DNA of 64,000 nucleotides from a phage. Both the position numbers and the translations under genes were made by a program. Below, piece after piece: positions 7,640 through 13,014 of the stretch (its first letter is position 1; each line of letters starts with the position of its first letter). The stretch lies in the sequence record PZ445524.1; one strand, given 5' to 3'. The notes beneath the pieces were generated by a model that was not told the origin of the DNA, did not search any database, and worked only from the letters and a program-made list of their open reading frames with translations.

Positions 7640-9817
7640 TTAGGCCGCAAGGGCCTTCATAGTTTTAGCGATTTGGGAAACTTCATCATCACTTAAAGAG
7701 TTGCGATAACCGATGAAGTCGGAAACAATACGGAATTTCTTGGTAAACTCAGCAACCATTTTATCACTGTTTTTTGAAGCATTATTTGATAATACATCAA
7801 AAAGATTAGTTACTGTCCAGATGTCATGACCGATGGTATCTTTTCCACCATTAAAATATACACCCTGTAATGAACTAACCATATTAGCAAGTCGTGTATA
7901 TTCTTCAGAAACTTCATCTACACTGAAGTACTTCATCATAAAATCTAACTCAGGATACTTGATAATTTTATCAATATATCGTTTAGCTGAACTTGAATAA
8001 CCTACATACTTATCATAATCTACATCATCAAAAGCATCTACATATAAATCACGCAAAGCTTCAAAAATACATTGGCACTGACCGAGTTCTTTTACCTTTT
8101 TCTGTAAAAGCGGACGAATAACATAAAATTCATTAATGCCAATAAGATTAGCCATACGAATCAAAATATTCATAGATGGATGACAAAGAGATGTAGTACC
8201 ATCCATAGAGAAAATATCAGAACGATGCATATACGCTACATAACCAGTAATTTCATCTGCTTCTGATGTGAGCGTAAATAATTCCTCTTTTTCCCAGCGC
8301 CCATCTTTAATTTCAAACTTAAATGCTGTAGCAGCTTTAGGACGAGGAGCTTTACTTTTAACTACCTTTGGAATATAGCTTTTAACTAAAGCTTCAATTT
8401 CTGACAAATAATGAATGTTAACTTCATCACTTTCAAACATCGCCATAATATCAGGAAGTAAATCAATCTGCGATTCTACTTCTGGATTAATAAACAGAAG
8501 ACGCTCATTGTGATGAATATTCAAAGTGTTATTAAATTCACTATCATCTAACGCATGCGCTAATCCACGAACAATATTAACACGATTTTTAATATTATCA
8601 ATAACGATATTAATTTTTGTTGTATTAATACCAAACAGACGATAACTTGATGCAACGGCTGAAGTTTCATGACTTTGCTTAATGCGCTTCAGTCGAGGGT
8701 CAAGATTTACTTCATACACAACTCCTGCATTGCATAACTTACTGTCAGGTTCAAACATGCTCTGCATCTTTTTATATGACAGATTTTTAGTCGTGAATTT
8801 GACTGAATTACTAATCATATAATCTCGAGCAGAATACCCCATCTTCATCAATTCACGATATGTGTGACGAGGAGATGTAGATTCTTTAAATCGTTTTACA
8901 TCTTCATTAAATGCTTTCTCACTGAGTTCTTTAACTCGTTCAATAATATTTTTACGAGTACGATCATCCAGTGAAAGAGCCTCGCGTGATGGAGCAATAT
9001 CCAATGAACCCATTGGAAACTTAATGTAATTCACTTCATTGCGAATGCTTAGCCAGTTACGGTCTCTAATAACACCATCGATAGGATAAACAATACCGCC
9101 GTAGATAGCATATAATCCACCACGATCAGGCCAGTATCTTTCTGGATTTACGCCGTAATAATCATCGAAATCCGGAAAATAATCAATTTCGCGGTCAAGA
9201 CCATTAATGATAGCCAAATCTTTGAATGGTCGCATGATATAAGAAACTTCATAAGCAAAGTTTCTAAAGTCTTTTTCTTCAACTGGAACTACGATTTCAA
9301 TACCAGTTTTATCATCTGGACCCATTTCTTTTACGAATGTAGGTTTAATTTGTGGACCATCGCCATCCATGTAAGCTACATAACCACGAATTTCACCTTT
9401 ATGATACGAAGTAATACTAAATGTATCAGTATAACTAAATGGAGATTTAGAACCTAAACCAAATCCGCCAATGAAATCGTTAGATTCAGCCTTAGATGAA
9501 CTGAAGTATGAATTATACAAACCAGGAGAATTATCATCACCCTGAATATCAAAATCACTCATACCCGGACCAAAATCTCGACAAACAAATCGTGGGTCTA
9601 AACGTCCAGGAACTTGTATGATAAATTTTTCAGGATTTCCATTAAGTGCATGGGCATCAATCATGTTGGTAATCAATTCACGGACTACTGCGCGAATCTT
9701 GTTTGTATACAAATCAGATGATAGAATTTTAAATACTTTAGGAGATGCTGTGATGCTAAATGCTTTTGATTTAGAACCATTACCAAGAATTGTTTCTTTT
9801 TCAGTGGTGATAATCAT
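7640..9817 (-). CDS. rIIA: rIIA protein
   Basis: 725 aa, T4 rIIA length; GHKL-ATPase-like N-terminus; followed by rIIB. Confidence 0.9.
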
Positions 9818-9827
9818 AATTTCCTCA

Positions 9828-10031
9828 TTAATTCATATTACGCTTAATAACTTCAGCAACTTCTAGTAATTCATCTTTAGTTGCGGTGTCGGATTGAATT
9901 TTATCTCTAATATCCTTAAAGCGGTTTTTAAATTCTTCGGCTTCTCCCATATCGAAAAAGCGTTGAATGATTCTATATTCTCGATGAACTGCTTTATCAA
10001 AAAGTTCTAAATTTACTCTATATGATTTCAT
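9828..10031 (-). CDS. hypothetical protein (67 aa), rIIA.1-like
   Basis: ORF track; between gene 60 and rIIA. Confidence 0.55.
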
Positions 10032-10056
10032 TTCAATATCCTCATTTGCCCAATTA

Positions 10057-10086
10057 ATTATACCACATCCTTGTGGTAAAGTAAAC
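10057..10086 (-). promoter_or_regulatory. early promoter (GTTTAC-N18-TATAAT)
   Basis: minus strand GTTTACTTTACCACAAGGATGTGGTATAAT; -35 overlaps gene 60 stop. Confidence 0.55.
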
Positions 10087-10430
10087 TACTGGCTCATCCA
10101 TTCTTTACGAAGGTCAGCATTATCTCCCATGAGCATTTCAAAAAGCTCTTTCCAGTTCTCAGGAAGTTTAACAACATCATATACTGGATTTTGAATCATT
10201 TCACGATATTCAGATTTTTCCAAAGAGCCAAGTCCTTTAATATAACGGATGCTATGTTTAGGTAAAGCATCTTTAGCACTCTCATATTCAGCGACTGTAT
10301 AAAACCATTCTTGTTTTTTACCGACCTGAGCGATGATTACAGGAGTTTTGACAAAGCGAATTCTTCCTTGTTCAAACAGTTCTGGCCAATTACTAAAAAA
10401 TCCGAGCAAAGAAGGATAAATAGAACCTAA
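10086..10430 (-). CDS. 60: DNA topoisomerase II small subunit gp60, segment 2 (codons 47-160, after the bypass)
   Basis: frame resumes with UUA right after landing GGA: LGSIYPSLLGFFSNWPE...; track ORF 10086..10409 is this segment. Confidence 0.9.
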   Translation of the reverse strand, partial: LGSIYPSLLGFFSNWPELFEQGRIRFVKTPVIIAQVGKKQEWFYTVAEYESAKDALPKHSIRYIKGLGSLEKSEYREMIQNPVYDVVKLPENWKELFEMLMGDNADLRKEWMSQ

Positions 10431-10480
10431 TCCAATAATCTCTTAATTATGAGGTATTTCTATAGATAGCCCGAAGGCTA
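10431..10480 (-). other. 60: 50-nt untranslated coding gap of gene 60 (translational bypass element)
   Basis: take-off GGA 10483-10481, stop UAG 10480-10478, UAGCC-UUCG-GGCUA hairpin 10481-10466, landing GGA 10433-10431. Confidence 0.9.
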
Positions 10481-10618
10481 TCCATCGTGATCTGCGTCTG
10501 TCATAATAGCGACATTCGCATAGTTCATTGAAGAGGATTTAATAGAACGACGAACATTGTTCTGCAATTTATATTTTTTCATATCAACGCTAGAAGAATC
10601 AATTTTTACAAATTTCAT
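10481..10618 (-). CDS. 60: DNA topoisomerase II small subunit gp60, segment 1 (codons 1-46)
   Basis: MKFVKIDSSSVDMKKYKLQNNVRRSIKSSSMNYANVAIMTDADHDG then UAG; GyrB-C-terminal-like TDADxDG motif. Confidence 0.9.
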
Positions 10619-11417
10619 TATACACCTCATAGAACTTTTCATCAGGAATCCAACCGCGTTTAAATTCATTAAATGCTCGGCCGAATAATTTTGAATTCAC
10701 AGTTATATTATTAACTGATTTCCATTTAGCAACTCCCGTTCGTTTATAATGATCGGGGTCATATTTCGTGACGTACCATTCATATAAATTTGGTATTAAT
10801 TTTACAGCCTCTGGATTTGTCGCTGATTTATTATACCATGGTTTCGCTTTTTCAAGTTCAGCTGCTTTTGCAGTAGCAGCAACAGTATTTCCAATACCAA
10901 CTAATTTTTCAGCTTTAATGCGTGGATCATTAACATGAAGACGAAAAACTTCGCCTTTTTCATTTTTAAAGCATGTCATGCCTTTAATTCCAGGAAGCTT
11001 AACACCTTTATTAACACCGCACCATTCCTTTGGGTTAAATGATCCTTTAATTAATAAGGCGCATTTACCCGATTTAATACTTCTCATTAAAACTTTATCT
11101 TTCATAAAGTTTTTTGACCATTCAGATACTGCTCTTTGATGGTAAATTCTAGCAATTTCATATAATTTACTAGAACGTAAATATTTTTCAGTGTTTAACA
11201 TTCTATTCATCGCATATGCCATTTCACGATTACGATGAATTTTATATAGTAGAAAATGTGCTAAAAAGTGTTCACGAAAAGTCAGTTTCACCAAATTTTC
11301 TTTATCATCAGAACCTCCCATTGATCTTGGAAGGATATGATGAATTTCACCCTTAAATTTAGAAACGCGGGTTTTACCCCGCACTATTAAGTCATTATAG
11401 ATTTTTTCGTAATTCAC
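10599..11417 (-). CDS. mobA: HNH homing endonuclease MobA
   Basis: 272 aa; HNH motif EIHHILPRSMGGSDDKENLVKLTFREHFLAH; located between 39 and 60. Confidence 0.85.
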   Translation of the reverse strand: MNYEKIYNDLIVRGKTRVSKFKGEIHHILPRSMGGSDDKENLVKLTFREHFLAHFLLYKIHRNREMAYAMNRMLNTEKYLRSSKLYEIARIYHQRAVSEWSKNFMKDKVLMRSIKSGKCALLIKGSFNPKEWCGVNKGVKLPGIKGMTCFKNEKGEVFRLHVNDPRIKAEKLVGIGNTVAATAKAAELEKAKPWYNKSATNPEAVKLIPNLYEWYVTKYDPDHYKRTGVAKWKSVNNITVNSKLFGRAFNEFKRGWIPDEKFYEVYNEICKN

Positions 11418-12948
11418 CTACTGTTATCCATTTACCATTAATCTGTACTTCATCATTTTCATTTACGATAATTGTATCGCCATTTAGTTCGAAAGTAAAC
11501 CACTCGCCATCTTCTTTTTCTTCAAACGCCTTTTCACCAAGAACTAGACCAGTGATTGCGCAAATATCAAATAGTTCTTTGTTTTTAAGCATATCGGCAT
11601 ATGACATACCCCAGCTATTAAGAACTTTACCGCGCAATGGATAACCACCATGAAGTTCTTTATCGCGAACATCAATAAGATATCCGATAGCAGAATCACC
11701 CTCAGTCAAGAAAAGAGTAGTGTCAGCATCTTTACCGCAAAGATTCGCTTTGATATGTTTATGAACCTTAGCTTTAGAAGCCTTTTTAGCTGCTTTAGTT
11801 TCTGCTGCTTTTTCTGCCGCCAATTTACGAGCCAAAGCAGCTTCAATAATCGGCATCAGAATTGCTTCATTATTTAGAATAGCGCGTGAAATCTTTTTAG
11901 CATCAAGCTGAATATGACTACGAATTTCACCAAATGGAGAAGTCAAACGCTCTTTAGTTTGAGAATCAAATCGCATGTTTTTCATATCACGAACAAACAT
12001 AACGATAGTCAAACATTCTTTAACACGTGCTTTAGTTACATCAATTTTGAACTTACGTTTGATTTGTGGAATAAGGTCTTCACAAATATCATCCATAACA
12101 CAGTCAATGTGATGGCCACCATTCTTAGTGTGGATGTTATTCACATAAGTTAATTGACGAAATCCATCCGGTGAACGACCAACCGCAATAGAACAATTTT
12201 CTTGTTCTTGAACAATAGCATGTTCATCATACTGCCGTGCATATTTCTTAAAATTGCCCTGAACCTTTTTACCATTAAAGGTAAATTGGATATCAGGATA
12301 AACAACAGCAAGTGTCTGGAGACGATCTAGTGTAATGTCAAGATAAACTTGGGACAGCTCATTAGTTTCAAATGACATAAAATCAGGAATGAAAGTAACA
12401 CGAGTTCCTTTCCATTTTCCAGGAATATCTTCCCATGATTTATTTTCCATGCCATTTGAACAACGAACTACAATATTATTTTGACCATCGCCAGTTTCAC
12501 CAACAAACATCACAGAAAAAATGTTTGTCAAACTAGAACCAACACCATTCATACCGCCAGTGACGCGTTCTTTATCATCACCAAAGTTACCACCTGCTTT
12601 TGGAATAGTCCATGCAGCAACAGGACCAGGAATTTCTTCACCGGTAGGTGTTTTAACCATCGCTTGTGGAATACCACGACCGTTATCTTCAACTGTTACT
12701 TGATTGTTTTTAATAGTAACATTAATTTTATTTGCGAATTTAAACTTAGTACGAATACCTTCATCTACTGAGTTATCGATAATTTCATCAATAAGCTTAA
12801 CAAGACCAGGTACATACTGAACACTTTCCCATTTACCAAACAGAAAGCGCTCATGCATTTCATTAGCAGAAGAGCCAATATACATGCCGCTACGCTTTTT
12901 GATATGTTCAATATCGCTCAGAATTTTAATTTCATTCTTAATCATCAC
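11395..12948 (-). CDS. 39: DNA topoisomerase II large subunit (GyrB-like ATPase)
   Basis: 517 aa; MIKNEIKILSDIEHIKKRSGMYIGS and GHKL ATPase motifs. Confidence 0.95.
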   Translation of the reverse strand: MMIKNEIKILSDIEHIKKRSGMYIGSSANEMHERFLFGKWESVQYVPGLVKLIDEIIDNSVDEGIRTKFKFANKINVTIKNNQVTVEDNGRGIPQAMVKTPTGEEIPGPVAAWTIPKAGGNFGDDKERVTGGMNGVGSSLTNIFSVMFVGETGDGQNNIVVRCSNGMENKSWEDIPGKWKGTRVTFIPDFMSFETNELSQVYLDITLDRLQTLAVVYPDIQFTFNGKKVQGNFKKYARQYDEHAIVQEQENCSIAVGRSPDGFRQLTYVNNIHTKNGGHHIDCVMDDICEDLIPQIKRKFKIDVTKARVKECLTIVMFVRDMKNMRFDSQTKERLTSPFGEIRSHIQLDAKKISRAILNNEAILMPIIEAALARKLAAEKAAETKAAKKASKAKVHKHIKANLCGKDADTTLFLTEGDSAIGYLIDVRDKELHGGYPLRGKVLNSWGMSYADMLKNKELFDICAITGLVLGEKAFEEKEDGEWFTFELNGDTIIVNENDEVQINGKWITVGELRKNL

Positions 12949-13014
12949 TTATCCTCGTTTGGTTTCGGGAATATTATACTCCAATAATCATAAAGCTAAA
13001 GGCCCGAAGGCCTT

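Follow-up and report, generated by a model that had tools for sequence, protein, structure and literature searches.

Gene 60 of the phage studied here is interrupted by 50 nt that begin with a stop codon. The question that the locus raises is whether ribosomes hop over these nucleotides to make one protein, as has been described for phage T4, or whether the two halves of the gene are expressed in some other way. The DNA analyzed is a stretch of 64,000 nt (sequence record PZ445524.1; hereafter, the window), and the features discussed lie on its minus strand. We are almost certain that the element is the programmed translational bypass of T4 gene 60, carried by a T4-like phage. This bypass has been known since 1988 and has been characterized down to cryo-EM structures (Agirrezabala et al. 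2017, PMC5462505, and, as cited there, Huang et al. 1988, Weiss et al. 1990 and Samatova et al. 2014), and the locus in the source phage is already known rather than new. For the source phage, we computed the anatomy of the element, its identity with T4, the contiguous conserved protein that it restores and the comparative support from other phages. The mechanism of take-off, sliding and landing comes from the published T4 experiments, which used the identical sequence, and the identity across all known signals is the sole justification for carrying it over.

Gene order and anatomy of the interrupted gene 60

The minus-strand gene order is the same as in T4, i.e., gene 39, mobA, gene 60, rIIA.1 and rIIA. 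Gene 39 (11395-12948) encodes the topoisomerase II large subunit's N-terminal part, which carries the GHKL ATPase and the GyrB transducer (Pfam HATPase_c and DNA_gyraseB; T4 annotation). It is followed by mobA (10599-11417; ORF list, PHROG 655 and T4T annotation), gene 60 (10618-10086; ORFs and T4 alignment), and rIIA.1 (10031-9828) and rIIA (9817-7640). A search with the 1.5-kb locus returned 503 phage records, almost all of them Tequatrovirus-type phages of enterobacteria, and the whole cassette of mobA and gap was common to 42 phage records. Several T4 records are 99.1% identical to this locus, and Shigella phage ESh36 and Salmonella phage Manna are 99.5-99.6% identical. The window shares only ~95% identity with its best database matches over 25 kb and, therefore, the source phage, judged from its sequence, is a Tequatrovirus that is a relative of T4 but not T4 itself.

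Gene 60 starts with the ATG at 10618. Its first coding segment (10481-10618; 46 codons, MKFVKIDSSSVDMKKYKLQNNVRRSIKSSSMNYANVAIMTDADHDG), whose DNA is 100% identical to T4, closes with the take-off codon GGA at 10483-10481, and UAG follows directly at 10480-10478. The coding gap (10431-10480) comprises 50 nt, from this UAG through the landing GGA at 10433-10431, such that the first bases of the two GGA codons are exactly 50 nt apart. The second coding segment (10086-10430; 114 codons plus the stop TAG at 10088-10086) reads LGSIYPSLLGFF...KEWMSQ* and encodes, based on its translation and Pfam TOPRIM_C, the C-terminal part of the Toprim region of the topoisomerase II large subunit, giving a joined product of 46 + 114 = 160 aa. 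An earlier, sequence-only reading of the window had placed the take-off and stop codons, the landing codon, the frame that runs on to the stop and the length of the joined product just as above; each of these can be read directly from the minus strand or follows from the codon counts. The same reading had pointed out that the ORF track presents gene 60 as two unrelated ORFs, and the ORF list indeed splits the gene into 63 aa (10478-10669) and 107 aa (10086-10409). The former only stretches back to an upstream in-frame ATG within the overlapping mobA, the true first segment starting at 10618, and the latter opens at TTG 10409 (10407-10409), a synonymous Leu change that is peculiar to the source phage. 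T4 has CTG at this position and, therefore, the apparent start of the 107-aa ORF is not conserved, but an accident.

Stop codons close all three frames of the gap (two UAGs at offsets 0 and 18 in frame 0, and UAA in both frame 1 and frame 2), and its only GGN triplets are GGG/GGC buried in a hairpin and the landing GGA itself. The take-off codon and the landing codon match, both being GGA, such that one peptidyl-tRNA can read both. The GAG at 10440-10442 is placed like the mini Shine-Dalgarno (mini-SD) sequence to which Manning & Atkins (bioRxiv 10.1101/2022.08.31.505936), after Wills et al. 2008, ascribe a role in landing, and for which they specify A+U-rich surroundings and a GAG located 5-7 nt 5' of the landing codon. 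Here, the spacer between GAG and landing codon is 6 nt long (AUUAUU), and the gap's 3' part is 78% A+U. The nascent-peptide signal, KKYKLQNNVRRSIKSSS, occupies residues 14-30 of the first segment, and all 46 residues of this segment are the same as in T4 and in PDB 5NP6 chain C, the nascent chain on a ribosome stalled at the take-off codon. Residues Tyr16, Arg24, Ser28 and His44 of this peptide contact the exit tunnel in T4 (PMC5462505).

At the RNA level, the predicted take-off stem-loop (10462-10485) consists of a 10-bp stem (10485-10476 paired with 10471-10462) and a UUCG tetraloop (10475-10472), with the take-off GGA and the UAG both inside its 5' arm. Its core, UAGCC-UUCG-GGCUA, is found at 10480-10467; the slightly wider interval quoted by the sequence-only reading (10481-10466) includes the closing A-U pair. 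In silico folding, which that reading had suggested as a check, recovered the hairpin in both the minimum free energy (MFE) and the centroid structure, for 10500-10425 as well as for a 201-nt region, with a modest local fold z-score of -2.1 (10500-10425). Upstream of the take-off site, a 5' stem-loop (5' SL), GCGAAUGUCGCUAUUAUGACAGACGC, is predicted at 10493-10520 in the source phage by the MFE and centroid structures of the 201-nt region, and the sequence of this region is identical to T4. The 3' stem-loop, a barrier to forward slippage, is weak in the predicted fold, and its region bears four substitutions relative to T4. Both the 5' and the 3' stem-loops are poorly conserved among bypass cassettes (Manning & Atkins, bioRxiv 10.1101/2022.08.31.505936), and forward sliding in T4 is reportedly driven by the 5' SL (PMC5462505).

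The most direct evidence for the nature of the element comes from the alignment with T4 (AF158101.6). Columns 1-231 are 100% identical, and these 231 nt begin 22 nt upstream of the start codon and end 22 nt beyond the landing codon, taking in the ribosome-binding region, start codon, nascent-peptide region, 5' SL, take-off stem-loop, gap, mini-SD and landing site. Further, positions 10480-10431 of the window equal, column for column, the T4 misc_feature described as 'non-coding translational bypass region in mRNA' (AF158101.6, 2803-2852). Given this coincidence and the 231 identical nucleotides, a chance match is not an issue. Gene 60 differs from that of T4 at nine positions, all of them in the second coding segment. 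All nine differences are synonymous in the landing frame, as opposed to the other two frames, in which six and nine of the nine, respectively, would be non-synonymous. The match to the T4 hop that the sequence-only reading had proposed is thus borne out by the alignment that it had recommended, with the 231 nt of signals identical and the protein identical to gp60.

The joined product and its homologues in other phages

The joined 160 aa are identical to T4 gp60 within the gp39-gp60 fusion of cryo-EM structure 8YO3 (residues 517-676), and the predicted junction peptide is ...MTDADHDG joined to LGSIYPSLLGFFSNWPELFEQGR. In the unsplit gp39 of phage T6 (8YLU, 605 aa), AIMTDADHDGLGSIYPSLLGFF is uninterrupted and aligns across residues 46/47 without a gap. 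Even in a distant eukaryotic-type topoisomerase II, tdadhdglgsiypsllgff aligns to VDQDLDGCGKILGLLLAYF, and the junction is ungapped. A 133-aa query spanning the junction matched 1,949 phage records, and each sampled match was one contiguous piece of 393-399 nt; in comparison, the gap region was present in only 54 records. That is, the gap splits the invariant DxDxDG motif of the Toprim region and the joined product recreates the contiguous sequence of the homologues. Since these are continuous at the junction, the hop restores an invariant DxDxDG-x motif that is continuous in nearly all relatives.

The GyrB C-terminal homology that had been anticipated for the downstream part stood in one respect and failed in another: Pfam TOPRIM_C passes on the joined product (33.3 bits vs. 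a cut-off of 29), whereas DNA_gyraseB_C remains sub-threshold (20.5 vs. 29.8 bits). On gp39, HATPase_c scored 38.8 bits and DNA_gyraseB 51.4 bits. Taken together, TOPRIM_C on gp60 and the GHKL ATPase and GyrB transducer on gp39 identify the GyrB-like subunit of a type IIA topoisomerase.

A sensitive DNA search recovered the gap region at 73-81% identity in four more groups of distant phages, namely Proteus phages (Bragavirus), Salmonella phage S16, an E. coli Gelderlandvirus and Shewanella phage Thanatos-1. The distant cassettes share one layout, i.e., gene 39, a homing endonuclease, an ORF of 44-46 codons, a break and the C-terminal segment. The gap is 50 nt with GGA/GGA as take-off/landing codons in the window and T4, 51 nt with GGG/GGA in the Proteus phages, 48 nt with GGU/GGC in the Salmonella S16 type (Gelderlandvirus), and 52 nt with GGU/GGU in Shewanella Thanatos-1. 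Consequently, gaps of 48-52 nt represent all three relative frames, and every codon pair is readable by a single tRNA-Gly. The take-off stem was 100% paired in all six sequences from the four lineages, compared to 18-45% pairing in a control in which the partner columns were shifted by 1-3 positions. The pair that involves the third base of the take-off codon is A-U, G-C or U-A and covaries with its partner, the covariation sample consisting of only four independent lineages with one pair changed on both sides.

In two Proteus phages, Pm5461 and SJ_PmiM (L003/L007, ~1549-1602), the 51-nt gap is in frame and UAG is the sole blocking codon. UAG readthrough with a 17-residue insertion would thus be formally possible in the Proteus phages, but the GGG/GGA match and the conserved hairpin favor hopping there as well.

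These cross-lineage patterns were considered as a new finding and rejected as such: codon matching and stem covariation in distant phages are already in Manning & Atkins 2022 (bioRxiv 10.1101/2022.08.31.505936), who report the same clades, codon pairs and stem conservation. The dozens of homologous bypass cassettes described in that study also mean that the sequence-only reading went too far in calling the hop one of very few natural cases. A scan of IMG/VR viral contigs for the take-off motif GAYGGNTAGCCTTNGGGCTA yielded only Proteus phage Pm5461 and two further matches (L010, 777-796; L011, 6399-6418); in the latter two, the 20-nt motif stands without topoisomerase context and the frames are closed or unrelated, so that both look like chance and were discarded. 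Overall, the matched codons, the gap lengths and the pairing of the stem are what hopping predicts, and not what splicing, independent initiation or frameshifting would predict.

Alternative explanations for the interruption

T4 has self-splicing introns in other genes, and the gap is located exactly where homologues run continuously, both of which speak for a small intron, or for removal of the 50 nt from the RNA by other means, with a continuous mRNA translated in the normal way. However, 50 nt is far below the size of group I or group II introns, the gap persists in T4 mRNA according to the 1988 work as cited in PMC5462505, and unspliced gene 60 mRNA gives the bypass product in vitro, with the ribosome imaged at the take-off codon (PMC5462505). 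Across the whole 64-kb window (1-64000), no Rfam family, introns included, reached its gathering score and ARAGORN found no tRNA; therefore, the window contains no recognized group I intron or tRNA cluster. We give removal from the RNA next to no credence. Similarly negligible, in our assessment, is the probability that a 50-nt insertion has broken the gene and left a pseudogene, or that the interruption is a sequencing or assembly error. That the automated annotations of the closest records fragment the gene, or call 'hypothetical proteins', would fit such a view, but the same 50 nt recur, at no less than 98% identity, in over 40 phage genomes that were sequenced independently, and the divergence from T4 downstream is purely synonymous. 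Further, lineages whose aligned bypass regions are only 73-81% identical retain the stem, the UAG, the mini-SD and the matched codons.

Decoding of the gap as amino acids, by UAG readthrough combined with ribosomal frameshifting, is formally possible for the Proteus phages alone, where the gap of 51 nt is in frame and the UAG is the only block. In the window, stops block every frame of the gap, ~16 extra residues would come to lie in the invariant DxDxDG-x motif as an insertion that is absent from homologues, and gaps of 48, 50, 51 and 52 nt obey no single frameshift rule, which together make such linear recoding improbable in the extreme. We also consider it very unlikely that two separate polypeptides are made, with termination at the UAG (10480-10478) and the second segment initiated on its own, at TTG 10409 or by means of the GAG mini-SD. 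The 107-aa ORF does open at this TTG, a GAG is present upstream of the landing site, and a fraction of ribosomes terminates in vitro and frees a 46-aa 'stop peptide' (PMC5462505). On the other hand, the landing frame opens at 10442 and offers no ATG, GTG or TTG until 10409, where T4 has CTG; starting there would lose the conserved GSIYPSL, a motif that every unsplit homologue has contiguous with DADHDG. In four lineages, the take-off codon co-varies with the landing codon inside the reading set of one tRNA, which independent initiation leaves unexplained. In T4 in vivo, the sole product detected by mass spectrometry, as relayed by Manning & Atkins after Wills 2008, lands at the GGA 50 nt downstream. 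Within 10000-11500, we counted 7 promoter-like sites vs. a mean of 6.7 in shuffled sequence, with none just upstream of the landing site, and a scan of the same interval for terminators found none. Programmed bypass is the reading that we favor, and nothing in the sequence speaks against it.

The mobA cassette, the T4 mechanism and related systems

The gene between the two halves of the split topoisomerase gene, mobA, is an intact ORF of 819 nt (272 codons) that shares 23 nt with the end of gene 39 and 20 nt with the start of gene 60. Its match to PHROG 655, 'homing endonuclease', has E = 2.5e-57, and the Pfam HNH match is weak; an HNH endonuclease gene thus separates the halves of gene 39/60. 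Compared to the T4T record, mobA has equal length and differs by one amino acid. The reference T4 sequence (AF158101.6) has 11 scattered extra bases in mobA relative to the window, and it is because of these that AF158101.6 annotates a mobA pseudogene and '60.1' (gp60.1).

The cassette (~11510-10432) is 98.6-100% identical to T4, vs. 94-99% for the flanking genes (8480-13010 compared to T4). Stretches of gene 39 and rIIA in the flanks fall to 94-95% in places. The identity profile against T4 over 8480-13010, inspected for a sharp co-conversion boundary at the cassette, showed only mild contrast. Hence, the difference between cassette and flanks would be compatible with mobility or recent lateral spread of the cassette, but it is modest and not decisive. 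That mobA and the gap form a mobile cassette was reported by Bonocora et al. (2011, PNAS 108:16351, as represented in papers citing it). A stronger view is that the cassette is a currently active mobile element, and that the incomplete hop may, in addition, act as a regulatory valve, for instance by adjusting the gp60:gp39 stoichiometry to temperature or growth state, or supply the 46-aa peptide as a product in its own right. Activity of the cassette is suggested by the intact mobA and by the 98.6-100% identity of the cassette to T4 within a genome only ~95% identical to its best database matches, and we regard the view as a whole as unlikely.

Based on the T4 work, the following model may be proposed for programmed bypass in the source phage. 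Ribosomes would initiate at the AUG at 10618, translate 46 codons and pause once peptidyl-tRNA-Gly occupies the take-off GGA (10483-10481) and the UAG has entered the A site. Through KKYKLQNNVRRSIKSSS and residues downstream of it, the nascent peptide would grip the exit tunnel and keep the peptidyl-transferase center inactive, while the short dynamic UUCG hairpin in the A site, i.e., the decoding site, would hinder release factor RF1. Anticodon and codon would then unpair, and the ribosome would slide forward over the undecoded gap, driven by EF-G pseudotranslocation and by refolding of the mRNA behind it, with folding of the 5' SL setting the direction. The GAG mini-SD, 6 nt upstream, would aid re-pairing of the same tRNA at the landing GGA (10433-10431), and translation would restart at UUA (10430-10428), yielding a single 160-aa gp60 that, with gp39, would reconstitute the GyrB-like subunit of the phage type IIA topoisomerase. 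Gene 39 would originally have been continuous, and a mobile DNA cassette made up of the gap and mobA would have split it. For T4, the inactive peptidyl-transferase center, the hairpin in the decoding site, sliding and the 5' SL have been described (PMC5462505), EF-G pseudotranslocation triggers take-off (PMC6551183), and the gap is kept in the mRNA with one polypeptide made in vivo (Huang 1988; Weiss 1990; Samatova 2014, as cited in PMC5462505).

As a departure from collinear decoding, the hop in gene 60 is a landmark, and it serves as a model of how a ribosome can be reprogrammed by nascent peptide, mRNA structure and EF-G. Because its signals are identical to those of T4, the locus in the source phage brings no new biology. 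Its practical value lies in annotation correction, since ORF calling and automated annotation break gene 60 into two or three fragments, and the recognition of the bypass from raw sequence alone represents a useful positive control. Public annotations of cassette-bearing phages, both the closest and the more distant ones (ESh36, L002, 2419-2915; L003-L007, ~1400-1950) give gene 60 as two or three CDSs, several of them labeled 'hypothetical protein', and also put a spurious opposite-strand ORF across the gap. Among the records compared, only HY01 and those derived from T4 have the bypass annotated.

With respect to known systems, there is a functional likeness to the mitochondrial 'byp' elements of Magnusiomyces capitatus, in which, according to Lang et al. 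2014 (PMC4000857, as cited in PMC5462505), peptidyl-tRNA likewise moves between matched take-off and landing codons over an untranslated insert; these differ in their unrelated sequence, in their genetic system, in being present many times per genome and in lacking a mobA or topoisomerase context. The cassettes of the Proteus, Salmonella S16 and Shewanella phages are closer, and share with the window the insertion point in DxDxDG, the UAG, the hairpin core UAGCC-UUNG-GGCUA, the mini-SD and the flanking homing endonuclease. They differ in gap length and codon pairs (and, in Thanatos-1, in a UUAG take-off loop instead of UUCG), their bypass region being only 73-81% identical to the window. The MobA-bypass cassette (Bonocora 2011, as represented in citing papers; Manning & Atkins 2022) has the same order as found here, that is, gene 39, HNH mobA, a short ORF2 as N-terminal extension, the gap and the remaining Toprim, with mobA overlapping both neighbors as in the window. 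Within it, the window cassette belongs to clade 1 of Manning & Atkins (E. coli phages), which always has GGA/GGA; mobA is intact in the window and in the T4T record, as opposed to a pseudogene in the reference T4 annotation (AF158101.6). Finally, compared to T4 gene 60 itself, the source phage differs in the nine synonymous substitutions of its second segment and in the carrier genome, another Tequatrovirus with ~95% identity to its best matches over 25 kb. It shares with T4 the take-off GGA, the UAG, the UUCG hairpin, the 50-nt gap, the GAG mini-SD, the landing GGA, the 46-aa nascent peptide and the 160-aa product, with the DNA of the signals and the protein both 100% identical.
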